DNA of 64,000 nucleotides, from the NCBI GenBank assembly GCA_963718615.1, contig OY970368.1, positions 1,952,001 to 2,016,000 on the forward strand, given 5' to 3'. Below, in pieces: positions 5,523-43,300 of this stretch. The notes beneath the pieces are model-generated. The model had not been told where the DNA came from, did not search any database, and saw only the letters and a program-made list of their open reading frames with translations. Position 1 is the stretch's first letter, and each line of letters starts with the position of its first letter. The translations under genes and the position numbers were made by a program. The stretch comes from an uncultured cyanobacterium (GTDB taxonomy: Bacteria > Cyanobacteriota > Cyanobacteriia > PCC-9006 > JAAUQQ01).

Positions 5523-8500
5523 TTACAAGCCGTTTCCAATCAAAATAAACGGAGCCCAGTAGTAGGGATTGCTCAGTTGCTCGTCTGTCATGGCGCTGCC
5601 AGTTTTGGTGCTGACGACTTCGATGCCAGCGCGTTTTAGGCCCACGGTGGTGTAGTTGCTGGAGATGAGTGCTTTTTGAGCTTCTTGGAGGGCTTGGGCT
5701 TTGGTCATGCCTTTCTGTAGAGCAGCGTAGAAGGCATCCATTAGCAATTGGGTGCCGCCGTCATCGACTTGCCAGAGGGAGGCTAGGGCGGCTTTGGCCC
5801 CGGCACGTTGGAATTGGTAGCCTAAGCCTAGGATTTCTTCTCCTTCACCGAAGCTGCCCCCAATGCCGGTCTCACAGGCGGAGAGGACAACCAGTTCTAC
5901 GTCGGTCATGGTGAGATCTTTAATTTCTGGGAGAGGAATCGTTTCGCCGCTGCCGAGGGCGAGGAAGGAGTTGTTGGCATCACCGACGACGAATTTGCCA
6001 TGGGTTGCAAGGTGAATGATGCTGAAGTTATTGAGCTCAGGCATAAGATTCTTGCGATCGAAAGTTTGCTCACGCAGGACTTTTGTGGGGAAAAGCTGGG
6101 CGAGCGAATCGACTTCGTTGAGGGTGAAGGGTATGCCGCCGAACCGAAAATCTTGATTTCCGACTTGGATACTGCGAGATTGGTTACCCCAGGCTCCGGC
6201 GAGGATGCGGGGCGCGGTTTGGGGGGCGGTATCCAATTCAGTCAGGGATTGGGCGACGATGTTGTTGGTGCGGTAACGCTCGGCAATCCATTGGTTGCCA
6301 TCGTACAGGGCGGCGAGGGGAATGTAGCGGAGAATACCGTCGGGGGCGTAGATAAGGGTGTCGGGGTTGGCGGCTTCGAGGTCGGCTTCGAGGGGTTTGA
6401 GCAGCCAGGTGTAAAGTTGTTGAGCTAACCGTTTAGTTTCTTTGATATTGTTGGGGGATTGCAGGGCGCTACGGTATTGGGTGACGGTTTCCCGCAGTTT
6501 TTGGGCGTCGAAGTTGTTAACGGTTCGGCGAAGGGGTGGGCTGTTGGGGGTGGTGATGATGAGTTCGAGGCGATCGGGGAGAATGAGGGGGGAGATGAGG
6601 ACGGCTTTGGTGTTGCGCAGGTTGTCGCGCAGGTTGTTGAGGTCTTCGAGGGGGACGATTTGTCGGGAGGTTTTTCGGCTGACTTGGTTGAGCAGGGTTT
6701 GGATGGGGTCGCTGTCGATGAAGGTGTTGAATTGGTGATTAAGGTCTTTTTCGAGGGCGACGAGTTGGGCGAGGCGGTTTTCTTGTTGGGGGCTGAGAGG
6801 TTGTTGGGTTTTAAGGTGTCGGAGTTGGGTGAGTTCTTGGCCGATTTGGATGGCGGTTTTTTGGAGTTCGTTGTAGCGATCGAGAATTTCTTGCTCGGGT
6901 TTGAGGATAATTAATGGATCGTTGGTTGTGCCACGGGTGTTTTTGAGGTAGTCTTCGAGCTCTTGGACTTTGAGGAGATCAAGGACTTGTTGGGCTTCGA
7001 GGATGCGGTCTTGTTGGAGGAGGAGGTCGGCGAGGGTGCGGTAGGTGTCGGAGATGGAGTTGGTGTAGGATTCTTGGATTTCGCGTTCAAGGCGGGTGAG
7101 GTTGCCGCGAATGTTTTCGTAGGTGTTGATGGCTTGTTTGTAGAAGACGATCGCCAGTTCTGGCTGTTGTTGCTGAATTTGGAGGGCTCCGAGGTGGGCG
7201 AGGGTTTGGGCTTGGGTGGGTCGATCGCCGACTTCCTGGGCAAGGGCAAGGGATTGCTGCAAGGTGGTTTGGGCATCAGCGGTTTGGTTGAGTTGGGTTT
7301 GGGCTTGGCCGATGAAGCTTTGAGTGTAGGCTATGTCTCGTTTTGCGGAAAGTTTTTGGTCAACAGCGAGGGCTTGTTGGAAGAAGTCTAGGGCTTTTTC
7401 GGGTTGGGATTGGGCTAGGTAAACTTGACCGATGCCGCTGAGGATGTTGCCTTCGCGGCTGAGGGCTCCGTTGGTTTGGGTGATGGTGAGGGCTTGTTGA
7501 TAGTAGGTGAGGGCATCGGTGGTTTTGCCTTGAGCAATATAAACTTTGGCAATAACAGTCATTAACTCAGCTTCTAGTCCTTGGGCTTTTAATTTCCGAG
7601 CTAATGAGAGGGCTTGTTCATATTTATCTAGAGCGCGCTGAAACTGGCCCAGTTTGAGATAGACGCCAGCAGTTTGTCCTGCAGATTGAATGATTTGTTG
7701 TTGATCTCCGACTGTTTTGAAGAGTTCCTCTGCTTGTTGAACATATTGAAGTGCAGTAGCATAATCTCCTTGCTCAGAATAGAGTACACCCAAGTTGACA
7801 TATACAGTTGCTTGACCCTCACGATCTTGATATTCATTATGAATTGCAAGAGCTTGTCGATAGAAACTTTCGGATTTTGCCTGTTCACCTTGAGCACCAT
7901 AAATTGAACCAATATTGTTCAATATGCTACCTATTGCACCATGAACAGAATTACTCATTCGCTGAATAGCATCAATCGAACCTTTTGTTGGCTTAAGAAA
8001 TGCTTGGAATTCTTCACCACAGTCAAAAATCTCTGGAGGCGTATCAATGCCTAAATCACAGTGTAATAGTCGCAAATTTTCTGGAGTCGGACCTTTTGCA
8101 AGCTGATTGTAAGTCTTTTGAGAAGATGCAAGAATTTCCTGAAAAACAGACAAAGCATTATCATATTGACCTTGTACAGACCAAATTTTTGCAATATTAT
8201 TCAATATGATTTCTTTTGGTTCTTCAGAGTCAATTAACAAAGCTTGCTCATAAACGGACAAGGATTTAGTATAATTACCTTGATTTTCATAGATTGAAGC
8301 AATTCTAATAAGGACGAAAGCCTTGTAAAAATCAGATGTTTTTGCGTGATAGCTTTCCAATTGTTTATTTAGAAAATCTAGTCCCTTTACATATTCTCCA
8401 CGAAACTCATAAATATTTGCTATGCCCTGAAAGAGTACCATTTCAGCAAGATCGACAACTACCTGAAAGTCTTTAGAGTAATTTTGCCCAGAATTTATAT

Positions 8501-9383
8501 TCGACTCTCTTAGTGCTTGAGAAATAGTGAGTGCATTTTTTGCTTTTAAAAGGTATTCGTCGAAGTATTCTGGTTGATTAAGTTCTTCTACCCAAGAGGC
8601 ATAAATCATAAATTCTGAAAAAAGAGCTATGGACTCATTCTCTTTTTCCTCAGATGCTTTCGCCGCTTCTCGCATTTTGGGCATAATAGCTATGGCTTCT
8701 TCATATCGCCCAGATTCTCTCAAAGCATCAACTAAGTCATCATAAGTATTGAATATTGTGTCATAAATATTTTTAGCATCTTCAGGTATCCTAGTAAGGA
8801 CTTGCTCTTGAAGTGATAGAGACTGTCGATAAACTTCGATTGCTTGTGAGTATTGCTGTTGGGCTTGAAATGAGTTGCCTATTATTCGCAGACTTGAAAT
8901 AATCCAAGACCAATTATCAATTTCCTTAAAAACTGTCAGTGCCTGTTGCGCGTGACTCAGAGAGTTGTCAAAATCCCTCTGACCAAAATAAGTGAGAGAA
9001 AGATGCATCAGAAGGGTACCTTCTTCTTCACGATCGCCCAATTCCCTCCTAATCACAAGCGCCTGCTGATAAAAATCCAACGCTTTTTCGCTCTCCTTTA
9101 GCCCAGCATAAACATCACCAATTGCTTGGAGAGAGGTAGCTTGCCCAGAGCGATCGCCCACCCGCCGAAAAATCCCCAAAGCCTGCCCAAACGTTTCTAA
9201 CGCATCCTGCCACTTCCCTTGCAGCCGTAACTCTTCCCCGGCCTGGTTCAACCGAATCGCCTTCTCTCGCTGCCCCTCTGCCGTTTGTGCCAGCGCGATT
9301 GCCTCCGGCAACCCCAACCCCGTCACGCTAAGCCCCAAGCAAGTCAAACCCAACAGTCCTCCAATCCCTAATTGAGCCTTCAT
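5523..9383 (-). CDS. TPR-CHAT protease 1 with N-terminal signal peptide
   Basis: Hydrophobic leader ending ALAQ, many 40-aa TPRs, and a CHAT domain with HLATHG, VLSACETG and terminal YYWAPFILIGN. ATG 9383 preferred (AGGGG upstream) over GTG 9392. Confidence 0.92.
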   Translation of the reverse strand: MKAQLGIGGLLGLTCLGLSVTGLGLPEAIALAQTAEGQREKAIRLNQAGEELRLQGKWQDALETFGQALGIFRRVGDRSGQATSLQAIGDVYAGLKESEKALDFYQQALVIRRELGDREEEGTLLMHLSLTYFGQRDFDNSLSHAQQALTVFKEIDNWSWIISSLRIIGNSFQAQQQYSQAIEVYRQSLSLQEQVLTRIPEDAKNIYDTIFNTYDDLVDALRESGRYEEAIAIMPKMREAAKASEEKENESIALFSEFMIYASWVEELNQPEYFDEYLLKAKNALTISQALRESNINSGQNYSKDFQVVVDLAEMVLFQGIANIYEFRGEYVKGLDFLNKQLESYHAKTSDFYKAFVLIRIASIYENQGNYTKSLSVYEQALLIDSEEPKEIILNNIAKIWSVQGQYDNALSVFQEILASSQKTYNQLAKGPTPENLRLLHCDLGIDTPPEIFDCGEEFQAFLKPTKGSIDAIQRMSNSVHGAIGSILNNIGSIYGAQGEQAKSESFYRQALAIHNEYQDREGQATVYVNLGVLYSEQGDYATALQYVQQAEELFKTVGDQQQIIQSAGQTAGVYLKLGQFQRALDKYEQALSLARKLKAQGLEAELMTVIAKVYIAQGKTTDALTYYQQALTITQTNGALSREGNILSGIGQVYLAQSQPEKALDFFQQALAVDQKLSAKRDIAYTQSFIGQAQTQLNQTADAQTTLQQSLALAQEVGDRPTQAQTLAHLGALQIQQQQPELAIVFYKQAINTYENIRGNLTRLEREIQESYTNSISDTYRTLADLLLQQDRILEAQQVLDLLKVQELEDYLKNTRGTTNDPLIILKPEQEILDRYNELQKTAIQIGQELTQLRHLKTQQPLSPQQENRLAQLVALEKDLNHQFNTFIDSDPIQTLLNQVSRKTSRQIVPLEDLNNLRDNLRNTKAVLISPLILPDRLELIITTPNSPPLRRTVNNFDAQKLRETVTQYRSALQSPNNIKETKRLAQQLYTWLLKPLEADLEAANPDTLIYAPDGILRYIPLAALYDGNQWIAERYRTNNIVAQSLTELDTAPQTAPRILAGAWGNQSRSIQVGNQDFRFGGIPFTLNEVDSLAQLFPTKVLREQTFDRKNLMPELNNFSIIHLATHGKFVVGDANNSFLALGSGETIPLPEIKDLTMTDVELVVLSACETGIGGSFGEGEEILGLGYQFQRAGAKAALASLWQVDDGGTQLLMDAFYAALQKGMTKAQALQEAQKALISSNYTTVGLKRAGIEVVSTKTGSAMTDEQLSNPYYWAPFILIGNGL
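7017..7507. repeat. Near-identical ~490-bp segment shared with 11731-12221 (TPR-CHAT 1 vs 2)
   Basis: Base-by-base comparison at constant offset 4714 shows only scattered mismatches. Confidence 0.9.
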
Positions 9384-9418
9384 CGCTATCACCCCTGTTG
9401 ATTATGGTTTACAACATC

Positions 9419-9447
9419 TATACGGTGTAACCCTAGCTAGCTATGCA
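9419..9447 (-). promoter_or_regulatory. Cluster promoter motif TGCAT-N18-CGTATA upstream of TPR-CHAT 1
   Basis: Minus strand reads TTCCAGATTGCATAGCTAGCTAGGGTTACACCGTATAGATGT. Confidence 0.75.
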
Positions 9448-9473
9448 ATCTGGAAAGATAGAAGAGTCTGTAT

Positions 9474-10213: not shown

Positions 10214-10263
10214 ATCTCACCTCCTGATCTATAACCTAGTCTAACGAAGTTTATGTCTAGCGC

Positions 10264-16474: not shown

Positions 16475-17686
16475 ATGACTACCGATTCCTTTACCTTTGA
16501 GACCGACAACTTTGAGCTAGAGGGCCAAGCCATTTCTGCCGAAGCCATTTGGCTAAGGCCCGAACAAGTGGACCAAGCCCAAGCAGCGGCCAGACAAGTG
16601 CAAGACCCATCCAAACTCTGGAACGTTTACCTCAACAGTTTAGCCCGTCAGGCCTTCGAAATCTGGCTGAAAAAAAGACTCCCCCAGCACACCCCGAAAC
16701 GCTTAGAACCGATCGAATCCAGTCAAAACAGTTGGTCGTTGGATGTGAATGGGTTTCAAATTTGTCTTTTACCCCAGGGCAGTCAGCCGGATGAATTCAT
16801 TTTGATTCCTCAGGACAAAGTAGACAGCCCAACCCAAAACTCGACCCCAAGTCCAAACCAGGGGGTTCATTTTTTTGTCCTGGTGGCGATCGCCGAAGAA
16901 CAGGGATGTGTCGAAATTTGTGCGATCTTGCGCCATGACAAACTCATCCAAAACCGCGCTCTTCTCTCCCGAGACGAAGAAAACCATTATCAAGTTCCCT
17001 TCCATTGGTTTAATCCAGAACCCGAGGATTTGCTGCTGTATCTCCGTTGTGCTGAGCCCGCTGCCTTTAGCTTGGAACCAGTACCGAGCCAGCCAGATCC
17101 GAGCCAGCCAGATCTGATCCAGCCAAACCTGAGGGAAAAAGTTGTGAATACAGCCCTATGGTTAGAAGGAAAACTGGATGCGATCGCCCAAACCCTAGCC
17201 TGGACACTCCTCCCCGCGCCTCCCCTGGAATCAGCCTCAGCCTTTCGCAACCGTGCAGGGGGGATGCAAGAACTGCCCGAGGACTCCAACTATTACCGAT
17301 TGATTCGGGAATTGCGCGATCGCCATATTCCCATTCCAGCAACCGTCCGACCCGCCTATCAAGACTTTGCAATCGCCAAACAAAACGTTCGCCTCTATGC
17401 CCTGTCTTGGTCCCTCGAACTTCCGGAGGAGCAAATCGCAGAATGGATATTAGTGCTGATTGTAGGACCCACACCTGGGATTGCTTTCCCCAAGGATATT
17501 GGTTTGATTGTCGAAGATCAGAACCAGATTTTGCTCAATACTCAATTAGACGATCCAGAGCGAGATCAGTACCTGTTTGCAGAGGTAATTGGAGAGTTTG
17601 ATGAAGTTTTCCAGGTCAAACTCCAACTCAGCGATCAAGTCTTGCCTGTGGTTCCAGCCTTTACGTTTCAGCCCCATCATTCCTGA
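16475..17686 (+). CDS. DUF1822-like protein (candidate anti-sigma factor or protease substrate)
   Basis: WNVYLNSLA...FEIWL N-terminal motif, central SAFRN motif, and a beta-rich C-terminal domain ending GEFDEVFQVKL. No signal peptide. Confidence 0.72.
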   Translation: MTTDSFTFETDNFELEGQAISAEAIWLRPEQVDQAQAAARQVQDPSKLWNVYLNSLARQAFEIWLKKRLPQHTPKRLEPIESSQNSWSLDVNGFQICLLPQGSQPDEFILIPQDKVDSPTQNSTPSPNQGVHFFVLVAIAEEQGCVEICAILRHDKLIQNRALLSRDEENHYQVPFHWFNPEPEDLLLYLRCAEPAAFSLEPVPSQPDPSQPDLIQPNLREKVVNTALWLEGKLDAIAQTLAWTLLPAPPLESASAFRNRAGGMQELPEDSNYYRLIRELRDRHIPIPATVRPAYQDFAIAKQNVRLYALSWSLELPEEQIAEWILVLIVGPTPGIAFPKDIGLIVEDQNQILLNTQLDDPERDQYLFAEVIGEFDEVFQVKLQLSDQVLPVVPAFTFQPHHS

Positions 17687-17724: not shown

Positions 17725-17753
17725 TGCATAGGCGGAGTGCCTTCTAAAAGACA
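17725..17753 (+). promoter_or_regulatory. Weak cluster promoter motif TGCAT-N18-AAGACA upstream of CHAT-CHASE2
   Basis: TTGCATAGGCGGAGTGCCTTCTAAAAGACATA, 40 nt before ATG 17794. Confidence 0.4.
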
Positions 17754-17793
17754 TATTCAGGTATCCCTGATTCCTTTGCATCTTTCATTTCCT

Positions 17794-20166
17794 ATGGCTA
17801 AGCTATCCCTGAGCATCTGGCGTGTTGAACAGACCTGTAACTTTGTTTTAGGTTGGGGAGAGGACTGTCAACTCACTGCGAATCTCAAGGTGTTCCCTAG
17901 CCTTTTAGACTACTATGGGATTTGGCAGGAGGCTTACTTAAATTTCTATCGGTCTAGTCTTCGGGGCAGAGCCCAGCAATCCGGTAGTTTTCCGACTCCC
18001 CCGGTGGATTGGCGGGTCAGGCTGGTCCAAGCGGAGGCGGAGCTGCTCAGCGAGTTTCATCGCTGGTTAAATAGCCGAGATCTCATCGATATTCGTCAGA
18101 AAATTGCAGCACTGGCGACCCCTTCAATAACCTTGCAGCAGCCAGTGGATCTTTTTTTGAGCTGCAATGATGAAGAATTGGCTCGGCTGCCTTGGGAAAC
18201 CTGGGAAATGGGTCGAGAGTTTGGTGTTGCAGGCTCCATTCGGCTCGTTCGGACACCGACCACGATCCGTCAAGAAACGCTGTCCTACCGTCGGCAGGGT
18301 AAGCTCCGACTGTTGGCGATTGTGGGTGATGACACCGGACTAGATTTTCAGCGCGATCGCGAAGCTCTCCAGTCTCTCCAATCCCTGATTGATGTGACAT
18401 TTGTGGGCTGGAAGCAGGGCAAAAAGATTGCAGCCCTACAGGAGGAAATTGTGCAAGCGATCGCCGACCCTCAGGGGTGGGATGTGCTCTTTTTTGCCGG
18501 TCATAGCAATGAAACGGCCATCACGGGGGGAGAATTGGCGATCGCCCCTCATTCCTCAATTCTGCTCCGCGAAATTGCCCCGCAACTGACTGAGGCAAAG
18601 CTACGAGGACTCAAGTTTGCACTGTTTAACTCCTGCAAGGGGATCAGTATTGCCAATGCGTTAATCGACCTGGGATTAAGTCAAGTGGCTGTAATGCGAG
18701 AACCCATTCACAATGAGGTTGCTCAGGCCTTTCTGATTGCCTTTGTGAAGGCTTTAGCTAACTACGAGGATGTTCATCAGGCCATGCGATCGGCCTGTGA
18801 GTATCTCAAGGCCAAACGGAATATCACGTTTCCCTCGGCGGCTCTGGTTCCTTCATTATTTCAGCATCCGGGGGCGGTGTCGTTTCGGCTAGAACCCTCG
18901 GGCCTCAAGTCTTGCTTGCGTCGCTGGGGGCCAACCCGGAGGGAGGCGATCGCCGTGGGGCTTTTGGCTGGCTTGAGTCTGCTCCTTCCAGTCCAGCGAG
19001 AACTCATTGAACAAAGACAGTGGGTGCAAGCTCAGTTTCGCCATCTCACTGCCCAAGGAACGAATCCAGTTTCGTCTGCTAGTGTCTCTCCACCAGTGTT
19101 GCTTGTGCAAATCGATATGGATTCGGTGGCAGACGTCGTGCCAGTTCATCCGCTCAATCGTGCCTACCTCGCCCAGTTGATTCGCCAAGCGAGTCAATTG
19201 AAAGTTTCTCGCCTGGGATTTGATTATTTAGTGGATCGAGTGACTAATCAGAAGGATGATGAATTCCTTTCTTCAGAGCTCTTGAAAGCTGAGCAAGGGG
19301 GAATGAAGATTATTTTTGCAACCCATCAAGAAAATGGTCGTTGGTTGCACCCCCATCCTAAAATTACTGAGGTGTCGCTGGATCAACTGGGTGACGTGAA
19401 ACTCTTTGGCAATCACCAGAAAGCGGTTTTACATGCCAACTTGGATCAGGAGGCCACCGCACCGCTCCCCTTGCCATTTTCCAGATTATTAGTTGGTTCT
19501 AAAAACCCGACAAACCCGGCTGAGCAAACGTTTCAAACCTCTTGGATCACATTACTATCCTATTATCTCCACCAGACTTGGCTCCATCCACTGATTGATT
19601 ATTCACTGCCTCCCAGCCAAATTTACCAACTCGTTTCGGCTAAAACATTTCTGAAGCTGTCTACGCGTGCTTCTGAGTTGAGCCGGATCAAAGACCAAAT
19701 TGTACTGATTGCCGCCGGATATACCGATGCGGGTGTGTCCGATAAGGGAGAAGACAAGAAAAAGGCTGCTCGGGCGATGCAGTTTTGGCTGCGTTCCCAT
19801 ACAACTGAGTGGGTCAATGGGGGCGAAATCCATGCCTATCACATCCATCATCTCATGAACCAGGCGTTCATCACGCCATTGCCCGATTTTTGGTTTGTGG
19901 GATTGGCGGCCCTGTTGGGGAAATGGGGCAGTTTGTCCTTCGGTCGGGGCAGGCATCGACGGGGTTACTGGCTCGGGTTGGCGGGAGGGGCTGGAGTTTA
20001 TGGTTTGGTGAGCTTGCAACTGTATGTGACGGTTCAGATTTTGTTGCCTTGGTTGTTGCCGGTGTTGGTGTTGGGGAGTTATGGGCTGGGGAGTCATGGG
20101 GGAGGCGATCGTCGCCGCTATCTACCAAATCCTAATCCTAATGGTTTAAGAGAGATAGAGACATGA
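17794..20166 (+). CDS. CHAT protease - TM - CHASE2 - 3TM membrane protein
   Basis: N-terminal CHAT (RLPWETW, FFAGHS, FNSCKG), TM AIAVGLLAGLSLLLP, CHASE2-like region (VLLVQID, PLNRAYLAQLI, GFDYLVD, IVLIAAG, GGEIHAY) and three C-terminal hydrophobic helices. ATG 17794 preferred over GTG 17737. Confidence 0.85.
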   Translation: MAKLSLSIWRVEQTCNFVLGWGEDCQLTANLKVFPSLLDYYGIWQEAYLNFYRSSLRGRAQQSGSFPTPPVDWRVRLVQAEAELLSEFHRWLNSRDLIDIRQKIAALATPSITLQQPVDLFLSCNDEELARLPWETWEMGREFGVAGSIRLVRTPTTIRQETLSYRRQGKLRLLAIVGDDTGLDFQRDREALQSLQSLIDVTFVGWKQGKKIAALQEEIVQAIADPQGWDVLFFAGHSNETAITGGELAIAPHSSILLREIAPQLTEAKLRGLKFALFNSCKGISIANALIDLGLSQVAVMREPIHNEVAQAFLIAFVKALANYEDVHQAMRSACEYLKAKRNITFPSAALVPSLFQHPGAVSFRLEPSGLKSCLRRWGPTRREAIAVGLLAGLSLLLPVQRELIEQRQWVQAQFRHLTAQGTNPVSSASVSPPVLLVQIDMDSVADVVPVHPLNRAYLAQLIRQASQLKVSRLGFDYLVDRVTNQKDDEFLSSELLKAEQGGMKIIFATHQENGRWLHPHPKITEVSLDQLGDVKLFGNHQKAVLHANLDQEATAPLPLPFSRLLVGSKNPTNPAEQTFQTSWITLLSYYLHQTWLHPLIDYSLPPSQIYQLVSAKTFLKLSTRASELSRIKDQIVLIAAGYTDAGVSDKGEDKKKAARAMQFWLRSHTTEWVNGGEIHAYHIHHLMNQAFITPLPDFWFVGLAALLGKWGSLSFGRGRHRRGYWLGLAGGAGVYGLVSLQLYVTVQILLPWLLPVLVLGSYGLGSHGGGDRRRYLPNPNPNGLREIET

Positions 20167-24102: not shown

Positions 24103-25053
24103 TTAAAACCACGGTATCCTGAACTTGTTTCGGACTCGCCCAGCTCCTGACTGCGCTCGCGACTTCAATTCCTCATCTAGATTCTTAATTACATCCCGAT
24201 CCTCGGGCTCTGCCTTTGGCACGTAGGGTTCTTTGAGAGGTTCTGCTACAGCATTTTCTTTTTGTAGTTGCAGATCAACTCCCTTCTTCTGGGCCTCACT
24301 CTCAAAAGTACCAATCGGAATTCCATAGTTAAACCCTGACTTAAACAAGGCAGATATCTCTTCTGCTGATTCATGTTCGAGATTCAACCTTTGTGATAGG
24401 CCGATTGGATCCTCAGCTCCACCGAGTCCATGAATGCCGATCACGCGTCCCGAAGAGTCGAAGATGCCACTACCACTCATGCCTGCTCGTGTCACATTGT
24501 CGTATGAAACCTCGTAGCCGCCTATAGGAGACTCCAGAAATCCGGATATATTACCGCCGGTGAACTGTCGAATTATTTGCGGATCAGTCGTTTTCATCTC
24601 AGCCATTGCAATAATCGCGTCAGGTTTTGGCCATCCAGAGATAAAGATAGACTGCCCTTCTTTCAGCCTTGCCACACTAATTTTGGCAGTAGGGTATTTT
24701 TCTTTTGTAGTAAATTTAGCAATCGCAAGATCGACTGCTGACAAAAACTTGATCTCCTCATAACTCACTTCATAGGTTTTTCGATCAGGAGTCCTCAATT
24801 GATAATCCTGTCGATGACGCAGCACATGCTCATTGCTTAAGACGAAATACTGATCTCCGTCTTTAGCAATAATGACACCTGAGCCTTGATCTTCTTTACG
24901 ATCTTTTCCCCGGATCAGAACGGTAACCTCGCGGGCAATATCATTGACTTCTTCACCGCTGAGAGCTTGTGCTCTTTGAGGAAGGGTGACAATCAGCGTA
25001 CTGGCGATCGCAACTCCAAAGACGGTCGTGGAAGCATACTTGAATAAACTCAT
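24103..25053 (-). CDS. Secreted trypsin-like (S1) serine protease
   Basis: Signal peptide ending RAQA; GSGVII, SNEHV (His), DLAI (Asp), GMSGS (Ser), VIGIHG. Confidence 0.88.
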   Translation of the reverse strand: MSLFKYASTTVFGVAIASTLIVTLPQRAQALSGEEVNDIAREVTVLIRGKDRKEDQGSGVIIAKDGDQYFVLSNEHVLRHRQDYQLRTPDRKTYEVSYEEIKFLSAVDLAIAKFTTKEKYPTAKISVARLKEGQSIFISGWPKPDAIIAMAEMKTTDPQIIRQFTGGNISGFLESPIGGYEVSYDNVTRAGMSGSGIFDSSGRVIGIHGLGGAEDPIGLSQRLNLEHESAEEISALFKSGFNYGIPIGTFESEAQKKGVDLQLQKENAVAEPLKEPYVPKAEPEDRDVIKNLDEELKSRAQSGAGRVRNKFRIPWF

Positions 25054-25201
25054 ACCTATTGACCTCAAGCAATTAACAGATTTTTTCTTGGACTAAAGCA
25101 CTAAAAACGTTGGGTAGAGCACTCGCTTGCACAAGAGTTTACACGATTTATAGTAAAAGCTCCTGAGTCGAGAACACCGTGCTCATTCACCAATGTCTAC
25201 C

Positions 25202-27527: not shown

Positions 27528-27625
27528 GGGGGAATGCTCCTGAGAATGACAAATGACATTTGCAAATAACGTTTGGTAGTGCGCCTTTCGCTCGTTATGG
27601 TTAGTCTCTTTTACAAGCAAAAGCA

Positions 27626-27654
27626 TATTCATCTGGACGTTCTAGAGATATGCA
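27626..27654 (-). promoter_or_regulatory. Cluster promoter motif TGCAT-N18-TGAATA upstream of the caspase gene
   Basis: Minus strand reads ATTGCATATCTCTAGAACGTCCAGATGAATATG. Confidence 0.5.
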
Positions 27655-35983: not shown

Positions 35984-36067
35984 CAGACAACCCCTTGAGT
36001 AAACTGATTCCCTCTTCCAGCCCAGACCCAAACACCAGACCAAAAGACAGAAATGGCAACAGAAGCA

Positions 36068-36096: not shown

Positions 36097-36111
36097 GCCG
36101 CCCTTTGGTCT

Positions 36112-36933
36112 ATGATCAAAAACAGGATTCGAATCATCCGCAGCCGCGCCACTCCAGAAGAGATACAAGAAATGCTAGAGAATCTTAGACTTCACCTCAC
36201 CCGTATTCAGGCATTAACTAATAGTGAAACTAATAGTGATGCTGACGAACATATTATTCTCCATCTGATTCGTGAAAGTCAGTACCTGATCGAATGGACT
36301 GTACCCACCCTAGACTTGGAGAAAGACGAGAGCCTGAACATTGCCACAGAACTCATCCGCCTTCAGCGACAACTCAGCCAATGGAAACTGCAATGGCATG
36401 AGCTGTGGGCAGATAGTCGGTCGCGGGAGGCGATCGCAAAAACTGCTCAACAATGGTGTCAATCGATTGACCAGTGGTCCGTACGCTCATCGCGGGTTAG
36501 AAATCAATTCCGATTCAGTGGCCTAAAGGCCATTGCCGATCAGAATGAACGGTGCCCAGTAGTAGGGATGGCTGAGGTTGCCTTTAATCTGTGGGGGTTT
36601 TCCGTCGGCAGTGGCGACAACAATGCTGGCTCGGGAGCCGCCGACTTGGGAATAGTCGTTTTTGATCAGGGCAATCTGGGTTTGGCGGAGGGCTTCGGCT
36701 TTGGGCAGGCCGAGGTCGAGGGCAACGTAGAAGGCGTTCATGAGTTTTTGGGTGCCGCCGTCATCGACTTGCCAGAGGGAGGCAATGGAGGCTTTGGCCC
36801 CGGCGCGTTGGAATTGGTAGCCCAAGCCGAGGATTTCTTGGCCATTGCTAAACTGACCGCCGAGGCCGGTTTCGCAGGCGGAGAGGACAACGAGATCAAC
36901 GCCGTTGAGGTTCCAGGCTTCGATGTCACGTAG
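36112..36933 (+). CDS. Hypothetical protein, probably a fused or eroded remnant; only ~36112-36500 looks genuinely coding
   Basis: MIKNRIRIIRSRATPEEIQEMLE recalls a DUF5674 N-terminus and is followed by ESQYLIEWT...ELIRLQRQLSQW. With no stop, the frame continues antisense into TPR-CHAT 5. Confidence 0.45.
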   Translation: MIKNRIRIIRSRATPEEIQEMLENLRLHLTRIQALTNSETNSDADEHIILHLIRESQYLIEWTVPTLDLEKDESLNIATELIRLQRQLSQWKLQWHELWADSRSREAIAKTAQQWCQSIDQWSVRSSRVRNQFRFSGLKAIADQNERCPVVGMAEVAFNLWGFSVGSGDNNAGSGAADLGIVVFDQGNLGLAEGFGFGQAEVEGNVEGVHEFLGAAVIDLPEGGNGGFGPGALELVAQAEDFLAIAKLTAEAGFAGGEDNEINAVEVPGFDVT

Positions 36934-38766
36934 GGTGACGGGTTTGCCATCGCCAAAGAGGATAAAGGAGTCGTCGGGACTGCCGATGACGAGGGCTCCG
37001 TGGGTGGCAAGGTGGATGATGGTGTGGTCGCCCATTTGGGGGAGGGTGTCCTGGGCGTTGAAGGTGCGATCGAAGAGTTGCACGGTATTGGGAATGAGTT
37101 TGCCCAGATTTTCGACTTCGACTTTGGTGAAGGGGAGGCCGTTGAATTGGAATTGTTCGCCACCGAGGTTAAAACTGTACTGGCCGGTGGTGAAGGCTCC
37201 GGCGAGGATGCTGGGGGGTTTAGGGGGTTGGGGGGTGAGCTGGGTGAGGGCGGCGGCGGTGATGTTGTTGATGCGATAGGTTTGGATCAGCCAGTCTTGG
37301 CCGTCGTGGAGGGCGGCGAGGGGAATATAGCGGAGGATGCCGTCGGGGGCGTAGAGGATGGTTTGGGCTTCAACGGTGGCGAGGTCGGTTTCAAAGTCTT
37401 TGAGCAGCCAGGTGTAGAGTTTTTGGGCGATGGGTTTGGGGTCTTGGCGGGGGTCTTGGAGGGCGGCGCGGAAGGCTTGGATCGTTTGCTGGAGTTCGGT
37501 TCGGGAAACGTTAACGGTGTGGCGGCGGGGTGGGGTTTGGGGGTTGGCGGTGGTGAGGATGAGTTCGATGCGATCGTCAAAAATCACGGGATAGAGCAAG
37601 ACGGCGTGGGGGTCGGCGGCGGCGAGGATGGGTTGGACGCTGAGGAGCCGTGCCATTTCGTCGGCGAGGTCGGGGTCACGGGTTTCGGGGCTGAGTTGGG
37701 CGATCAACTGCTGAACTTGGGGGCTGCGGAGAAATTGGTTGAAGTCTTGGGTGATTTTTTGTTGGAGTTGGAGGAGCTGGTTGAGGCGTTGGTTGTCGGC
37801 GGGGGTGCGTTGGGCGAGGGGGATGGCGCGGAGGCGGGTGAGGTCTTGGCCGATGGGGATGGTTTGGGCGAGGATGTCTTGGATGCCGCTGAGGATGAGT
37901 TGTTCGGGGTGGAGGGTGGGGATGTTGCCGGGGGCGGTGTTGCGGCGGACGTTGGTGAGGTAGTCGTCGAGTTCTTGGATTTTGAGGAGGTCGAGGACGC
38001 GTTGGGCTTCGAGGATGCGGTTTTGTTGGAGGAGGAGGTCGGCGAGGGTGCGGTAGGTGTTGGCGATGGAGTCGGTGTAGGTTTGTTGGAGGGTTTGATT
38101 GAGGGGTTGGAGGGTTTGGCGGATGGTTTCGTAGGTGTTGACGGCTTGTTTGTAGTAGAGGATGGCGAGTTGGGGTTGATTTTGTTGCTCAAGCAATAAT
38201 CCAACGTTGCCTAGGGCTATAGCGAGACCATTGCGATCGCCCATTTCCTCATAAATGGGCTGCGCTTGCTGATAGTATTCCAGTGCCTTGGCGTAGTTGC
38301 TCAAAGAGCCATAGGCAATGCCCTGATTCGTCAGCACGTTAGCCAGACCATTGCGATCGCCCACCTCCTCAAAAATGGGCTGCGCTTGCTGATAGTATTC
38401 CAGTGCTTTGGTGTAGTTGCTCAAGGAGAGATAGGCAACGCCCTGATTCGTCAGCACTTTAGCCAGACCATTGCGATCGCCCACCTCCTCAAAAATGGGC
38501 TGCGCTTGCTGATAGTATTCCAGTGCTTTGGTGTAGTTGCTCAAAGAGCCATAGGCAAACCCCTGATTCATCAGCACGTTAGCCAGACCATTGCGATCGC
38601 CCACCTCCTCAAATATCGGCTGCGCTTGCTGATAGTATTCCAGTGCTTTGGTGTAGTTGCTCAAAGAGCCATAGGCAAACCCCTGATTCATCAGCATGTT
38701 AGCCAGACCATTGCGATCGCCCACCTCCTCAAAAATGGGCTGCGCCTGCTGATAGTGGTAGTCCAA

Positions 38767-39207
38767 TTATGTGGGTGCTGGAGAGAATGAAGCGGCATGA
38801 GCCTGCTTAAGGCGCAATTGCTGGTTGTAATGGTGAACGAAATTCCAGATCGCAGCCTCGTGGTTCTCTTGTTTCTTTGAAAACGAGAGCGCCTTTCGGA
38901 CCAAGCGCGACACCCTTTGCCGCAGGGTGCAGTTGAACCTCTCGATGTAGCTCGTCAGCCCGCTTTCTTTCCCAACCGCTCGGTGGCGTTGGCTAGGAAG
39001 CACACAGGCATAGCTCTCCCAATAATCGGTGTAGATGACTGCACATTGGCGGTACACTCCCGGTAGAGACCGCCATAAAGCTTCGGCAGATTTAGCACTT
39101 CGGTCCCCGATATAAAGGCCAATGATTTCGCGAGTGTCCGCATCTAGAGCAATCCAAACCCACTGTTTATTTCCTTTATGGTCCACGAACGACCAGAGTT
39201 CGTCCAT
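38767..39207 (-). CDS. insB: IS1 transposase, InsB (DDE) part
   Basis: MDELWSFV...WVWIA...YTDYWESY...IERFNCTLRQRVSRLVRKALSFSK. Confidence 0.9.
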   Translation of the reverse strand: MDELWSFVDHKGNKQWVWIALDADTREIIGLYIGDRSAKSAEALWRSLPGVYRQCAVIYTDYWESYACVLPSQRHRAVGKESGLTSYIERFNCTLRQRVSRLVRKALSFSKKQENHEAAIWNFVHHYNQQLRLKQAHAASFSPAPT

Positions 39208-39215
39208 CTGGACCG

Positions 39216-39527
39216 TCAGAGCTTTTTTACTTTCTTCGTCACTTCCACCTCCCGAGCAACGGTTTTAGCTTTGGCGTTGACGTAGGTCTGAATGCAGCTC
39301 TCGGAGCGCTGCATCACCCGAGCAATTCCAGCAATGGCCAGCCTTTCAAGCAATAAACGTTCGAGCAAGGCTATCTCTTCATCGCTCAAGGGAAGGGATT
39401 TCGGAGTCAGGACAAACCGGCGATGGCAATCTCGACATTTATAGCTTTGAGTACCGCGATCGTTGAAGCCGTTACGGCTGATATCTTCAGATAGACAGTT
39501 AGGACAATGAAGCAGCTCTTGAGTCAT
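39216..39527 (-). CDS. insA: IS1 transposase, InsA (Zn-finger/HTH) part, joined to InsB by a predicted -1 frameshift at A AAA AAG (39222-39228)
   Basis: CPNC...YKCRDC. A -1 slip gives ...V K K A L T V Q M D E, in frame with InsB. Confidence 0.88.
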   Translation of the reverse strand: MTQELLHCPNCLSEDISRNGFNDRGTQSYKCRDCHRRFVLTPKSLPLSDEEIALLERLLLERLAIAGIARVMQRSESCIQTYVNAKAKTVAREVEVTKKVKKL

Positions 39528-40829
39528 CGCAATTGGCACAGAAGGGTCTTACCCAGTTTGCTTTTTCTTTCTCTAATGGCCACAACATACTCATCCCCCA
39601 GCTAAAGGCACTACCCTGATAGTATTCCAGCGCTTTGGTGTAGTTGCTCAAGGAGAGATAGGCAAGGCCCTGATTCGTCAGCACTTTAGCCAGACCATTG
39701 CGATCGCCCACCTCCTCAAAAATGGGCTGCGCCTGCTGATAGTATTCCAGTGCTTTGGCGTAGTTGCTCAAAGAGCCATAGGCAAGCCCCTGATTCCCCA
39801 GCACCTTAGCCAGACCATTGCGATCGCCCATTTCCTCATAAATGGGCTGCGCTTGCTGATAGTATTCCAGTGCCTTGGCGTAGTTGCTCAAAGAGCCATA
39901 GGCAATGCCCTGATTCGTCAGCACGTTAGCCAGACCATTGCGATCGCCCACCTCCTCAAAAATGGGCTGCGCTTGCTGATAGTATTCCAGTGCTTTGGTG
40001 TAGTTGCTCAAGGAGAGATAGGCAACGCCCTGATTCGTCAGCACTTTAGCCAGACCATTGCGATCGCCCACCTCCTCAAAAATGGGCTGCGCTTGCTGAT
40101 AGTATTCCAGTGCTTTGGTGTAGTTGCTCAAAGAGCCATAGGCAAACCCCTGATTCATCAGCACGTTAGCCAGACCATTGCGATCGCCCACCTCCTCAAA
40201 AATGGGCTGCGCCTGCTGATAGTATTCCAGCGCTTTGGCGTAGTTGCTCAAGGAGAGATAGGCAATGCCCTGACTCGTCAGCACGTTAGCCAGACCATTG
40301 CGATCGCCCACCTCCTCAAAAATGGGCTGCGCTTGCTGATAGTATTCCAGCGCTTTGGCGTAGTTGCTCAAGGAGCCATAGTCAATGCCCTGATTCATCA
40401 GCACGTCAGCCAGACCTGGGCGATCGCCCACCTCCTCAAATATTGACTGAGCTTGTTGATAAAGTTTAATCGCTTTGCCATAGTCACTCAGGTAGGAATA
40501 GGCAATACCCTGATTCTTCAGCACATTAGCAAGACCACGATCGTCACCCACTTCTTCAAAAATCACCTGAGCCTGCTTCAAAACCTCCAACGCCTCCCGT
40601 GGCTTCCCCGTTTTCCAGAGCCGCTTCCCCTCCTCCAATAACCGCTCCCCCTCCTCCCGCCGCCGCTCCACCCCAACCTCCGACCCCCCAGTTTCTCCCA
40701 CAACCAAAACCCCCTCCAGCTCCGCCCCAACCACCGGCCCCAACCCCAGCCCCAACATCCCCAACGCCAACGCCAAACCCACCCAAAATCGCATTGCCAT
40801 AGATCAACCCAGAGTTCTTCTATTACATC

Positions 40830-40858
40830 TATACGCATTAGCCCCACCGCCCCATGCA
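40830..40858 (-). promoter_or_regulatory. Cluster promoter motif TGCAT-N18-CGTATA upstream of TPR-CHAT 5
   Basis: Minus strand reads TTCCGGATTGCATGGGGCGGTGGGGCTAATGCGTATAGATGT. Confidence 0.75.
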
Positions 40859-40907
40859 ATCCGGAAACTCCCTAGCCCCAAAATAGCCCAGCCCCCTTAG
40901 GCAAAAT

Positions 40908-40936
40908 GGCATAACTCCCCACCCAGACAACAGATA
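40908..40936 (+). promoter_or_regulatory. Cluster promoter motif variant GGCAT-N18-CAGATA upstream of the subtilase
   Basis: TGGCATAACTCCCCACCCAGACAACAGATAAAT. Confidence 0.45.
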
Positions 40937-40981
40937 AATTCAGGCAACAAATCCATTGAAAAACACAGCCCCCTCAGAACC

Positions 40982-43300
40982 ATGAAAAACCTACCCCTGC
41001 TCACACTCCTCCTCACCAGCATCCTCATCACCACCACCACCCTCCCCATCCTCCACCATCCCCCCCAATCCATCCTCCTCGCCCAAACCCCACCCCAAGA
41101 CCCCCCACCCCAAGATCCCCCACAAGCCCCCAGCGAATTTTCCTATCGCTTCTATGACCAAAACATCCCCCTCACCCTCCACCCCGATCAGATCGCAGTC
41201 GAATTCAAACCCCAACCCCGTGACAGCACTAGGGGCAATACGGGCACTCGGGGCACCGATACCCGCCCCCATTATCTCAAACTCCAAGACACCCTCCAAA
41301 ACACCCTCCAAACCACCGAACCCAGCCCCAGCCGCGCCCCAACTCGTTCCACCGCCCCTCAGATTACCGTACAACCTCTAGGCACCCGCTACGCCCTCAT
41401 CACCTTACCCAAAACCCGCAGCCGCAGCCTAGAAGACCGCCTCACCCAAAGCCTAGAAGCCCCCTACATCACCGGACAGCTCCCGGTCTTTCAACGCCCC
41501 AATCAGCAAACGTCCATCGTCCTCCCCAACGAAATCGTCGTCAGCGTCGAACCCGACCTCTCCCCCAGCCAAACCGCAGCCACCCTCGATCGCTTTGGCC
41601 TCGACATCATTCGCCCCCTGCGCTTTAGCCAAAACAAATACCTCGTCAAATCCCGCAAAGACAGCGGCACCCATATTCTCAGAGTCGCCCAGCAACTCAC
41701 CACCCTGAGCGGCATCCAATCCGCCACCCCCAATTTTGTCCAATCCGTTGCCTACGGCGTCAACCCGCTCAACCTAGACGATGCCCGCTGGCTCAATCCA
41801 GCCCAAAATCCGCCAGACATCGGCCCCGCCAGCGCCATCGACTTTAGCAAACTCACCCCCCGCCAATCCAGCCAATCCGATCAATCCACCGACCCCGCCC
41901 AAAATCCCCTCCTCGCCCTCGCTTGGCACCTCGATAGCCGCCCCCTACAAAAACTGGCCCTACCAAGAACAGATGTTCATGCAACCGAAGCCTGGGAAGC
42001 GGGTCAGCAGGGCCAAGGCACCGTCGTTGCCGTGATCGATAGCCTCATTCAATGGGATCATCCCGACCTAGCCGCCAATCTTTACACCCTGGGGGATGAC
42101 GTGACCGATAAACTCCCCGGTGAAACCCAGGGTTGGGATTTTACGGAAGATGAAGCTGGTGACTGCGATTCGGCAGAAGCCGATGATTGTAGTTTGGGTG
42201 ATCCAGATACCCGCATTAGCGAGACAGAACTGGAGGTTTTGCGATCGCATTTCCAAAACACCTTCGCATTATCCGACGAGGCACTGCTCGCAACCTATGA
42301 GGAATGGGTAGAGAGCCTACGCAGCGAGGATGCTGACCTCTCCGATCGCCAAATAGCCAACCTGATTCGCAATTACATTCGTGACGATATTGCAGGAGAA
42401 TTTCATGGTACCTGGTCTGCGGGGGTGATTGCGGCATCTCCGGCGAGCGCGATCGGAGCGGTGGGCGTTGCCCCCAAGGCAAAAATTTTACCCGTGCGCG
42501 TCTTTGGCCTGGGGGGCAGTATTACATCAGCCGGATTGATTGAGGCGATCGGCTACGCCGCCGAGCGGGGCGCAGATGTGATCAACATGAGCCTCGGCAG
42601 TTTGTTGCCCGATCAAGACCTCACCGATCAAGTGTTCTCTGTCTTAGATAAACATCCCAACTTAGTGATCGTCGCTGCCGCAGGCAATGAAAACCTAGAT
42701 GGCGTCGGTTTTCCAGCAGCGATTCCGGGGGTTGTATCCGTTGGGGCCACAAATCTAGCAGGGCAACGGACGTCTTATAGCAGTTTTGGAGGACAGCTAG
42801 ATGTAGTTGCACCAGGGGGCGATCAGTCACAGCGACCCAGTGGTGGCATTTTGACCACGGGAGGGACGGGCTCAGAGGCTTGGTGGCAGGGGATTGATCC
42901 CCCTAAAACGGCGTGGGGTCCCTCGCTGGATCCACGGGGACAATATGTGCAGGTTCAGGGGACATCGTTTTCTGCACCGACGGTTGCGGGTGTGTTGGCC
43001 TTGATGCGCAGTGCGGATTTGAGCCATGCGTTGAGTCGTCAACAACTGCTTGAAATTTTACAGGAGACGGCCAGTTATAGCAGCCTCAGATTGACCCAGG
43101 CGGATAAGAATCACTATCGGTTGCAGAAAGAGATTGGCTTCGGCACGGTTTTCGCTTTCCCGCTTTCCCGTCCCTCAGGAATTCATGAACGGCCTGAGGC
43201 GATTTCACCAGAGCGGTACTATTTCGGCTGGGGATTGGTGAATGCGGCAGCGGCAGTCGAACAAGTGTTGCAGCGGGGGTCAGGTCGACAGTCCCCATAA
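40982..43300 (+). CDS. Secreted S8 (subtilisin-like) serine protease
   Basis: Signal peptide, long prodomain, VAVIDS (Asp), FHGTWSAG (His), AAAGN, GTSFSAP (Ser). Confidence 0.92.
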   Translation: MKNLPLLTLLLTSILITTTTLPILHHPPQSILLAQTPPQDPPPQDPPQAPSEFSYRFYDQNIPLTLHPDQIAVEFKPQPRDSTRGNTGTRGTDTRPHYLKLQDTLQNTLQTTEPSPSRAPTRSTAPQITVQPLGTRYALITLPKTRSRSLEDRLTQSLEAPYITGQLPVFQRPNQQTSIVLPNEIVVSVEPDLSPSQTAATLDRFGLDIIRPLRFSQNKYLVKSRKDSGTHILRVAQQLTTLSGIQSATPNFVQSVAYGVNPLNLDDARWLNPAQNPPDIGPASAIDFSKLTPRQSSQSDQSTDPAQNPLLALAWHLDSRPLQKLALPRTDVHATEAWEAGQQGQGTVVAVIDSLIQWDHPDLAANLYTLGDDVTDKLPGETQGWDFTEDEAGDCDSAEADDCSLGDPDTRISETELEVLRSHFQNTFALSDEALLATYEEWVESLRSEDADLSDRQIANLIRNYIRDDIAGEFHGTWSAGVIAASPASAIGAVGVAPKAKILPVRVFGLGGSITSAGLIEAIGYAAERGADVINMSLGSLLPDQDLTDQVFSVLDKHPNLVIVAAAGNENLDGVGFPAAIPGVVSVGATNLAGQRTSYSSFGGQLDVVAPGGDQSQRPSGGILTTGGTGSEAWWQGIDPPKTAWGPSLDPRGQYVQVQGTSFSAPTVAGVLALMRSADLSHALSRQQLLEILQETASYSSLRLTQADKNHYRLQKEIGFGTVFAFPLSRPSGIHERPEAISPERYYFGWGLVNAAAAVEQVLQRGSGRQSP

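Follow-up and report, generated by a model that had tools for sequence, protein, structure and literature searches.

Among CHAT proteases, an arginine at the position before the scissile bond (P1), and indeed a mapped cleavage site at all, is to our knowledge known for HetF only. HetF of Anabaena PCC 7120 is reported to cut PatU3 between R117 and S118, and a change of R117 blocks the cut (PMC9457339). That clan CD bacterial proteases cut after Arg, which a sequence-only reading of the DNA studied here had taken as established, is borne out for MaOC1, whose cuts follow basic residues (PMC7935541, PMC5756287), and this enzyme is described as inactive until a cut releases it from the remainder of its polypeptide (PMC5756287). 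Here we analyse a stretch of 64,000 nucleotides from an uncultured cyanobacterium (the window; assembly GCA_963718615.1, contig OY970368.1, positions 1,952,001 to 2,016,000), in which five proteins that join TPR repeats to a CHAT domain (TPR-CHATs, TC1 to TC5) are encoded together with a C14 orthocaspase-like protease, an S8 subtilase, a CHAT-CHASE2 membrane receptor and a DUF1822 protein. In all of them, arginines followed by a small residue had been singled out as possible cleavage sites that link the proteins.

Other described enzymes provide further points of reference. In a type III-B CRISPR system, SAVED-CHAT cuts and activates PCaspase (bioRxiv 10.1101/2023.06.23.546230). The gingipain RgpB is an exported, Arg-specific clan CD protease that is matured by cuts after two arginines of its prodomain (PMC4357240). 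DdvA is a periplasmic TPR-CHAT anti-sigma factor in which a flexible linker lies opposite the active site and is proposed to be cut by it in trans (PMC11506125), and Kaur et al. propose autopeptidase activation for the EACC2-caspase systems (PMC8195603). Separase and gingipain R, both fold relatives of the TPR-CHATs, are described as Arg-specific, and Csx29 as cutting a kind of site different from one with Arg at P1. A literature search that covered titles, abstracts and term counts, with supplements left aside, returned no description of the present motifs or of a linkage between caspase, subtilase and TPR-CHAT. We know of no function for exported TPR-CHATs, nor for the pair of DUF4384-type caspase and subtilase that accompanies them.

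The analysis shows that the motifs are real and, at most of the cited positions, conserved well beyond chance. We tentatively propose, with slightly less than an even chance of being right, that at the conserved motifs the proteins undergo endoproteolytic processing by an Arg-specific clan CD protease encoded in their own neighbourhood. The cleavage of these bonds, the enzyme that would cut them and the consequences are what we infer; the conservation itself is observed and is set out first.

Conservation of the arginine motifs

All 20 strings quoted in the sequence-only reading are present, once each, in the proteins to which they had been assigned, with coordinates verified by translation. 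It had also treated the scattered Arg-small sites as noteworthy in themselves, and this part has to be given up. Arg followed by Gly, Ala or Ser (R-[GAS]) occurs 13 times in the caspase, as against 10.7 expected from composition, 12 times in the subtilase (10.3 expected), 11 times in CHAT-CHASE2 (11.5) and twice in DUF1822 (3.2), and in TC1 to TC5 it occurs 9, 16, 13, 25 and 5 times, with 12.3, 13.8, 16.7, 16.5 and 6.1 expected, respectively. Whether counted as R-[GAS] or as R-[GASTN], the dipeptides match expectation, with no excess, in all 15 proteins of the region and 12 background proteins. Since their density is at chance in all 27, a list of such dipeptides proves nothing, and density was dropped as an argument; what matters is whether individual positions are retained. 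An absence of conservation in homologues had been named beforehand as a reason to abandon the idea, and in 120–152 sequences most of the cited sites turn out to be conserved.

The five TPR-CHATs match the CHAT profile (PF12770) with 188–218 bits and CHAT-CHASE2 with 34.1 bits, at a cutoff of 24. The paralogues are 39–50% identical over their last ~525 residues, and the columns of the His in HLATHG and of the Cys in LSACET are invariant, both in the five and in an alignment of 84 sequences made from the 5 window fragments and those 79 of 150 representatives that have at most 1050 residues; by analogy, these two residues presumably form the catalytic dyad. In the C-terminal loop before the final strand, the proposed R-A is indeed invariant in all five paralogues. 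The arginine at the junction between the TPR array and the CHAT domain had likewise been assigned to all five, and it aligns in four, that of TC3 standing one column later.

For a wider view, the CHAT region was searched against 1.84 billion representative sequences, which gave 95,276 clusters at E ≤0.001 and 4,648 at E ≤1e-30. The best 150 of these 4,648 (40–64% identical) were taken, three without a C-terminus were dropped, and the remaining 147 were combined with the five window proteins into a set of 152. Here the loop column holds Arg in 108 sequences, a gap in 25, Gln in 11 and other residues in 8, and the residue after the Arg is Gly in 57, Ala in 32 and Ser in 12 (101 together). At the junction, Arg is found in 111, Gln in 20, Lys in 5 and other residues in 16, followed by Gly (94), Ser (21), Arg (17) or Ala (9), so that 124 have Gly, Ser or Ala. 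The 84-sequence alignment agrees for the loop column (Arg in 61, gap in 20, other in 3) and has Arg at the junction in 58, the preceding residue being Val in 64. When counted by pattern, both anchors of the loop were found in 151 sequences and the loop had at least 18 residues in 130; R-[GAS] is present in 110 of these long loops and starts at loop position 10–12 in 81.

Within the source genome, 29 open frames match a profile of the TPR-CHAT region, the window five with 783–865 bits and the others with no more than 261, and the ~32-residue loop with R-A-[GS]-[IV] is confined to the window five. The junction helix motif was not found by pattern in the other 24 CHAT frames, which indicates that it is specific to this TPR-CHAT clade. 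Those of the 29 frames that have ~900 residues form a separate TPR-CHAT group, with neither the C-terminal loop nor the junction helix motif. In loci from named genomes, the loop motif runs throughout the cyanobacterial members and is mostly absent from distant non-cyanobacterial CHATs. A column-wise comparison of the 108 sequences that have the loop Arg with the 25 that lack the loop revealed no sharp partner residue; the best hint is the residue after the putative catalytic Cys, which is Glu in 78% of the former and 40% of the latter.

The caspase (Peptidase_C14, 79.2 bits against a cutoff of 21.4) was aligned with 120 database homologues of 44–69% identity; its gene start in the database is M36 (744 aa), and not the upstream ATG of the longest open reading frame. 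All 120 keep the RR of the twin-arginine motif, the His of SGHG, the Cys and Asp of D-S-C, and G-C-x-x-D. As the twin-arginine (Tat) motif is kept throughout the family, the caspase is probably exported in folded form. We take C-x-x-D and D-x-C to make up the acidic pocket to which metacaspases and orthocaspases owe their preference for Arg or Lys. Partial backing for this assignment comes from what is described in PMC5756287.

At all four sites cited in the caspase the Arg is conserved, R727 being judged among the homologues that bear the insertion in which it lies. Thus, R231 is Arg in 120 of 120 homologues and is followed by Gly in 118, with well conserved flanks (0.77). R599 is Arg in 103, with Ser before it in 93 and Gly (51), Ser (41) or Ala (17) after it, at a flank conservation of 0.47. 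About half of the homologues have the insertion around R727, and 61 of the 64 with a residue at this position have Arg, followed by Ser (36), Gly (20) or Ala (6). Lastly, R750 is Arg in 110, preceded by Thr (78), Ala (19) or Ser (15) and followed by Ala (55), Gly (29) or Ser (18), and its flanks are the least conserved of the caspase sites (0.44, 12 gap columns). A weak match to DUF4384, a domain that many homologues carry, covers residues 617–696 (E 0.016, below the cutoff); R599 stands just before this segment, and R709, R711, R727 and R750 after it. A second arginine, 13 residues after the catalytic Cys (R237, in V-R-[AS]; 26919–26951, caspase residues 228–238), is present in 120 of 120 homologues, followed by Ala (90) or Ser (25), and the window caspase has Asn at this position. 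In spacing, we take R237 to resemble the intersubunit cut of caspase-3/-7.

In the subtilase (Peptidase_S8, 163.7 bits against a cutoff of 21.8), likewise aligned with 120 database homologues, the cited sites divide: R90 in GTRGT and R118 in PSRA are conserved, while STRGN is an insertion found in the window only and the Arg of PTRS occurs in 8 of 120. R90 is Arg in 106, with Thr (76) or Ser (14) before and Gly (61) or Ser (34) after (flank conservation 0.36, 18 gap columns); R118 is Arg in 116, with Thr (62) or Ser (37) before and Gly (51) or Ser (35) after (0.32, 19 gap columns). No Pfam prodomain was found in the first 343 residues of the window subtilase. One homologue (P0386) has a Fervidolysin_NPro-like domain at its residues 145–214, downstream of the two conserved Arg sites. 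R90 and R118 lie in gap-rich loops of an N-terminal module, upstream of the prodomain seen in that homologue. The window subtilase also carries a local duplication (41225–41269; STRGN-TGTRGT-DTRP), by which a single T-R site of its relatives has become three within 15 residues, and it is alone in this among the 120 sequences. The PrcA-type Arg-specific subtilases were considered as possible relatives of the window enzyme and rejected, a literature search having yielded nothing of use and NCBIfam only names below threshold.

Across 120 homologues of CHAT-CHASE2, the cited R76 is Arg in 118 and the next residue is small in all 120 (Ala 67, Gly 49, Ser 4), followed by Arg in 103 or Lys in 14; the site is part of a conserved block, Y..FY..-L-R-[AG]-[RK]-V. 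For R258 of DUF1822 the claim stands for the Arg, present in 5 of 6 orthologues, and fails for the small residue, which varies among Asn, Ser, Asp and Pro.

The context of the arginines was evaluated in the three large alignments (TPR-CHAT, caspase and subtilase; 120–152 sequences), a conserved-island scan with 5–9 orthologues having been underpowered. They contain 42 Arg columns conserved in at least 80%, nine of them with weakly conserved flanks (≤0.47), and Gly, Ala or Ser follows in 76–98% at six of these nine, as against 4 of the 33 others (Fisher p 0.0025; this and the p-values below are optimistic, since the homologues are interrelated and independence is overstated). Five such columns belong to the caspase or subtilase, and in all five Ser or Thr precedes the Arg in 77–88%. 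An independent test by column points the same way: 53 columns are limited to Gly, Ala and Ser without a fixed residue, and in six of them the preceding column is a conserved Arg, the commonest conserved predecessor (odds ratio 6.9, p 0.0006). When conserved columns that stand as islands amid variable flanks are counted, 5 of 24 are Arg, as against 38 of 603 conserved columns overall (p 0.015), so that Arg is enriched, not dominant. As a control, all 25 R-[GAS] sites of the caspase and subtilase were compared, a site being called conserved when the Arg and a small residue are kept in at least half of the homologues: this holds for 6 of the 8 cited sites and 3 of the 17 uncited ones (p 0.0099). 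The longer pattern [ST]-R-[GAS] occurs six times in the caspase and six times in the subtilase, with 1.0–1.6 expected in each, an enrichment that is post hoc and illustrative only because the pattern was defined after viewing the proteins. The junction, caspase-tail and subtilase sites lie among poorly conserved columns, with 12–33 gap columns. The motifs of the TPR-CHATs, of the caspase tail and of the subtilase (R90 and R118) are thus found where conservation is lowest and indels are most frequent, whereas caspase R231 and CHAT-CHASE2 R76 lie in conserved blocks.

Structure predictions add to this picture. In an AlphaFold2 model of TC1 residues 765–1289, with a mean predicted local distance difference test score (pLDDT) of 87.7, the sole internal stretch below 50 is formed by fragment residues 55–58, that is, by the junction motif; the loop region is modelled as coil, in two 10-residue blocks that average 88 and then 72. 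The full-length model of TC3 (mean 86.7) has five segments below 50, namely the N-terminus, the end of the signal-peptide-like region, and residues 545–554, 631–643 and 992–1010. The segment 545–554 ends at I553-Q554 of IQRSA (553–557), with R555 just beyond it and an average of 55 over residues 551–560, and the segment 992–1010 is the C-terminal loop and holds the entire ERASVV (996–1001). In these models, both TPR-CHAT motifs lie in or at the edge of segments that are probably flexible. By Foldseek, the TC1 model is nearest to Csx29 (E 4.6e-14), DdvA, separases, gingipain R and K, and SAVED-CHAT; at the sequence level, the only PDB match of a TPR-CHAT is DdvA (8rot).

Possible roles of the conserved arginines

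As processing sites, they would be short linear motifs that exported proteases of one neighbourhood display on segments which are flexible and evolve fast. The caspase tail and the subtilase pro-region have them as [ST]-R-[GAS], the junction as V/T-R-G and the TPR-CHAT loop as R-[GAS]-x-[IVL], three forms in all. The candidate cutters, singly or together, are the Tat-exported C14 orthocaspase and the CHAT domains, Arg at P1 being plausible for the caspase and CHAT enzymes by analogy. A cut at the junction would disconnect the CHAT protease from its TPR sensor array, cuts in the caspase would release its core from the DUF4384-like C-terminal region (detached or excised), and a cut in the subtilase would nick its N-terminal pro-region. 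Overall, the proteases would thus mature from zymogens, each cutting itself or another, either in the periplasm or extracellularly.

The compartments have a bearing on how far such processing could reach. Topology, as read by eye from the N-termini and without a signal-peptide predictor, gives signal-peptide-like starts for TC1–TC4, the 5' part of TC5, the subtilase, a trypsin-fold protein and orf248, with the Tat motif in the caspase, whereas DUF1822, orf461 and the N-terminal CHAT module of CHAT-CHASE2 have no export-type N-terminus and appear cytoplasmic. The sequence-only reading had linked all the proteins in one cascade, an idea that conflicts with sites in two compartments; a single chain of cuts through all of them is unlikely. 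It is more plausible that the TPR-CHATs, caspase and subtilase form an extracytoplasmic group and that a separate intracellular step takes place at the receptor. In this step, the cytoplasmic R76 of CHAT-CHASE2 and R258 of DUF1822 would be cut only by the receptor's own CHAT domain, and the step would be that of the EACC2-caspase/DUF1822/sigma system outlined by Kaur et al. (PMC8195603).

A more elaborate scheme, which we regard as unlikely, is an extracytoplasmic caspase-style cascade in which secreted TPR-CHAT sensors, the Tat-exported orthocaspase and the subtilase zymogen would be wired by a shared [ST]-R-[GAS] code on flexible linkers. Capture of a ligand by the TPR array would free an active CHAT protease, which would activate first the caspase and next the subtilase, with the five diverged paralogues serving as alternative inputs to one executioner pair.

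Several observations weigh against processing as the role of these arginines. First, the residue before the Arg differs between families, being Val at the junction (64 of 84), variable in the loop, and Thr or Ser in the caspase and subtilase, so any "code" is loose; the TPR-CHATs show no enrichment of [ST]-R-[GAS], and the post hoc nature of that pattern and the optimism of the p-values count here as well. Second, most of the other 24 CHAT frames of the genome join the last helix straight to the last strand, with no loop; as 25 of the 152 relatives also do without it, the loop is dispensable for a working CHAT fold. Third, both caspase R231 and CHAT-CHASE2 R76 stand in well conserved blocks and may be structural, and the two compartments speak against a chain that joins all the proteins. 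Lastly, the trypsin-fold protein that adjoins the caspase in the window is not a conserved partner: among 73 loci with a relative of the TPR-CHAT region, and with neighbours considered within 10 kb, it recurs in two, neither of which has the caspase.

The main rival is that the motifs are structural or substrate-groove elements and not scissile bonds, a reading that we consider possible, though less likely than processing, for the motifs as a whole. The Arg would then shape specificity or brace the loop, the Gly, Ala or Ser after it would merely permit a tight turn, and R231 and R76 would be part of the folded core. The TPR-CHAT loop stands where the last helix of the caspase-like fold gives way to its last strand, a position that in caspases borders the substrate groove. 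In line with such a role, the TC1 model is fairly confident around the loop Arg (the block averages of 88 and 72), hydrophobic residues alternate with others in the loop, as R-[GAS]-x-[IVL]-x-[IV], and often a T-R-T-G-x-P turn is present as well, which makes it look like a hairpin, and R231 (flanks 0.77) and the L-R-[AG]-[RK]-V block of CHAT-CHASE2 have conserved surroundings. However, the same loop falls below a pLDDT of 50 in the full-length TC3 model and is absent from those 25 of 152 relatives, and for the junction, caspase-tail and subtilase sites, in their gap-rich variable columns, a purely structural role is hard to picture. A structural or groove role is therefore especially likely for caspase R231 and CHAT-CHASE2 R76, and possibly applies to the TPR-CHAT loop.

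A role as docking peptides, in which the TPR arrays of the TPR-CHATs or another partner would bind exposed [ST]-R-[GAS] segments and so recruit substrates or build a complex, is improbable. TPR arrays commonly bind short extended peptides, as is generally known, and the motifs are short, exposed and conserved amid variable flanks, in linked genes; yet three residues are short for recognition by TPRs, and the published precedents for these enzyme families, as far as those accounts go, are of cleavage after Arg. Mere coincidence, Arg-small dipeptides being common in any protein set, is the least credible account: it agrees with the chance density in the 15 region and 12 background proteins, with the two of four subtilase sites that are unconserved and with the DUF1822 site that has no conserved small residue, and it stands for STRGN, PTRS and the general density claim, but it is refuted for the conserved sites by position-wise conservation across 120–152 homologues at 40–69% identity and by the association of the small residue with variable flanks.

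The conserved arginines on flexible segments are precise and cheap experimental handles, in that they specify the residues to mutate and give predictable fragment masses. Should the enzymes process themselves or each other, as we tentatively propose, caspase-like activation cascades would reach the bacterial cell envelope, and the repeated occurrence of CHASE2/DUF928/TPR-CHAT cassettes in cyanobacteria would become easier to understand.

Gene neighbourhood and linkage

The source genome is a single contig of 6.1 Mb, and the closest relatives of the window genes are cyanobacterial. Pfam identifies the five TPR and CHAT proteins, Peptidase_C14, Peptidase_S8, CHAT with CHASE2, and DUF1822; the interval 5.5–43.3 kb also encodes an adenylate/guanylate cyclase, an RTX-repeat protein and a PD-(D/E)XK transposase-like protein (coordinates of the main features are given in Table 1). 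The genes for orf461, DUF1822, CHAT-CHASE2 and orf248 form an operon-like set, in which orf461 and orf248 have no significant Pfam or NCBIfam match. The first three co-occur in three of the loci (L017, L050 and L072), and two more (L016 and L029) show orf461 with DUF1822. The idea that PatU3 might be a DUF1822 protein was set aside, as no paper found in the literature names both, and no sequence comparison was made.

Table 1. Features of the window, with positions counted from its first nucleotide.
Feature	Position	Strand	Match or remark
TC1, TPR-CHAT, 1289 aa, signal-peptide-like N-terminus	5523..9392	-	TPR_12 1e-79, CHAT 2.7e-62
TC1 C-terminal loop motif KRAGIE (R1254)	5619..5636	-	coordinates verified by translation
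TC1 junction motif NTRGT (R820)	6927..6941	-	coordinates verified by translation
TC2, TPR-CHAT, 1395 aa	10264..14451	-	NTRAT 11644-11658, FRASIV 10360-10377
orf461, presumed sigma-like	14859-16244		
DUF1822 protein, AFRN (R258)	16475..17686	+	DUF1822 1e-26
CHAT-CHASE2 membrane receptor	17737..20166	+	CHASE2 2.1e-12, CHAT 2.6e-08
CHAT-CHASE2 SLRGR (R76), N-terminal cytoplasmic module	17956-17970	+	
orf248, signal peptide, presumed DUF928-like	20163-20909		
TC3, TPR-CHAT, 1031 aa	20967..24062	+	IQRSA 22623-22637, ERASVV 23952-23969
Trypsin-fold serine protease, signal-peptide-like N-terminus, adjoins caspase	24103..25068	-	Trypsin_2 7.6e-18
C14 orthocaspase-like protease, Tat motif	25293..27632	-	Peptidase_C14 4.8e-22
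Caspase STRAG (R750), C-terminal tail	25377..25391	-	
Caspase TTRSS (R727), in insertion	25446..25460	-	
Caspase GSRSA (R599), 18 residues before DUF4384-like segment	25830..25844	-	
Caspase GGTRG (R231), 7 residues after catalytic Cys	26937..26951	-	
Caspase twin-arginine motif K-R-R-H-F-L-Q	27510-27527		caspase residues 36-41 onward
TC4, TPR-CHAT, 1545 aa	31451..36088	-	YTRST 32888-32902, FRAGIE 31544-31561
TC5 3' part, TPR and CHAT, 747 aa open frame	36523..38766	-	VRRNT 37936-37950, SRASIV 36619-36636
8-bp direct repeat flanking IS1 (target duplication)	38749-38756 and 39616-39623		read from sequence
IS1-family element, 859 bp	38757..39615	-	Zn_ribbon_InsA 1.1e-08, DDE_Tnp_IS1 3.2e-21
IS1 open reading frame, DDE	38767-39207		
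IS1 open reading frame, InsA-like	39216-39539		
TC5 5' part, signal-peptide-like N-terminus and TPR repeats	39499..40800	-	Pfam TPR only; frame continues into IS1
S8 subtilase, 772 aa, export signal, long N-terminal pro-region	40982..43300	+	Peptidase_S8 7.8e-48
Subtilase GTRGT (R90)	41243..41257	+	
Subtilase PSRA (R118)	41327..41338	+	

Of the "five TPR-CHATs" described earlier, all five have TPR and CHAT matches, the fifth being a split gene: an IS1 insertion inside the TPR array of TC5 parts a signal-peptide-like 5' piece from the CHAT-bearing 3' piece, which is left without a signal peptide. Two further observations concern the TPR arrays. TC1 and TC2 are near-identical over ~200 residues up to the junction helix and diverge sharply just before the junction motif (6950–7600 and 11670–12350), a pattern that points to gene conversion, or to recombination with a breakpoint where the TPR and CHAT parts meet. 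The TPR array of TC4 (33700–34300) contains at least three near-identical tandem copies of a TPR unit of ~40 residues (KATILTVIGLVYTELGENQKALESWNQALPLMQELGDREA), a sign of recent repeat expansion.

Linkage was examined from both sides. In the 73 loci mentioned above, a full-length caspase orthologue is found near the TPR-CHAT in eight and a subtilase orthologue in four, one locus (L008) having both. Among 301 sampled genomes of the phylum, the caspase was matched in 61 (E ≤1e-60) and the subtilase in 13 (E ≤1e-100); 10 of the 13 subtilase genomes also have the caspase, and in six of the 13 the two genes lie on one contig within 22 kb. Their spacing is 177 bp in G276 (contig C85), 4.6 kb in G080 (C10), where the caspase frame is short and contains a stop, 5.5 kb in G170 (C50), 8.7 kb in G056 (C1), 13.4 kb in the window and 21.7 kb in G142 (C1). 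The same cluster includes a TPR-CHAT of the window clade in G170 and G142, and none was found nearby in G056, G080 and G276. Thus, the C14-DUF4384 caspase and the S8 subtilase are a recurrent gene pair in cyanobacteria, and CHAT and C14 proteases are repeatedly encoded together, as in the eight loci and the G170 and G142 clusters. Several database contigs of 5–40 kb also appear to hold both caspase and subtilase.

Comparison with known systems

The described systems each share some features with the window and depart from it in others. In the computational study of Kaur et al. (2021, PMC8195603), the EACC2-caspase neighbourhood includes an ECF sigma factor and DUF1822; DUF1822 and CHAT-CHASE2 of the window match it, and orf461 would take the place of the sigma-like gene. 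The parts of that account drawn on here make no mention of Arg-small motifs, of a TPR-CHAT loop or of a caspase-subtilase pairing. SAVED-CHAT and PCaspase resemble the window in that a CHAT protease and a second, caspase-like protease are encoded together. Their cascade is described as cytoplasmic and as triggered by cyclic oligoadenylate through the SAVED domain, whereas the window has no CRISPR context and offers TPR-array sensors, export signals and a linked subtilase.

Among the enzymes with known preferences, gingipain R is a fold match to the TPR-CHAT model (1cvr, 4ief). RgpB, however, belongs to family C25 and processes itself in an N-terminal prodomain, unlike the window sites at the junction between sensor and protease and before the last strand. 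MaOC1 is, like the window caspase, a prokaryotic C14 protease with an acidic pocket, and it cuts after basic residues (PMC7935541, PMC5756287); as described, it favours sites where basic residues are clustered and is without an additional domain. The window caspase, in contrast, has a Tat motif, a C-terminal region of ~430 residues with a DUF4384-like part, and single Arg sites after Ser or Thr.

Two CHAT proteins complete the comparison. DdvA is, like the window proteins, an extracytoplasmic TPR-CHAT, and it matches them in sequence and in fold (8rot); it differs in being membrane-anchored and, according to its description, in lacking three active-site helices, and its self-cleavage is only proposed. 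HetF, a cyanobacterial CHAT protease as well, cuts behind an Arg (P1), and the residue that follows at P1' is a small one, Ser (PMC9457339), as the window motifs would have it. Unlike the proposed exported system, HetF is described as cytoplasmic or divisome-associated with one known substrate, whereas the motifs of the window are spread over exported TPR-CHATs and other proteases.

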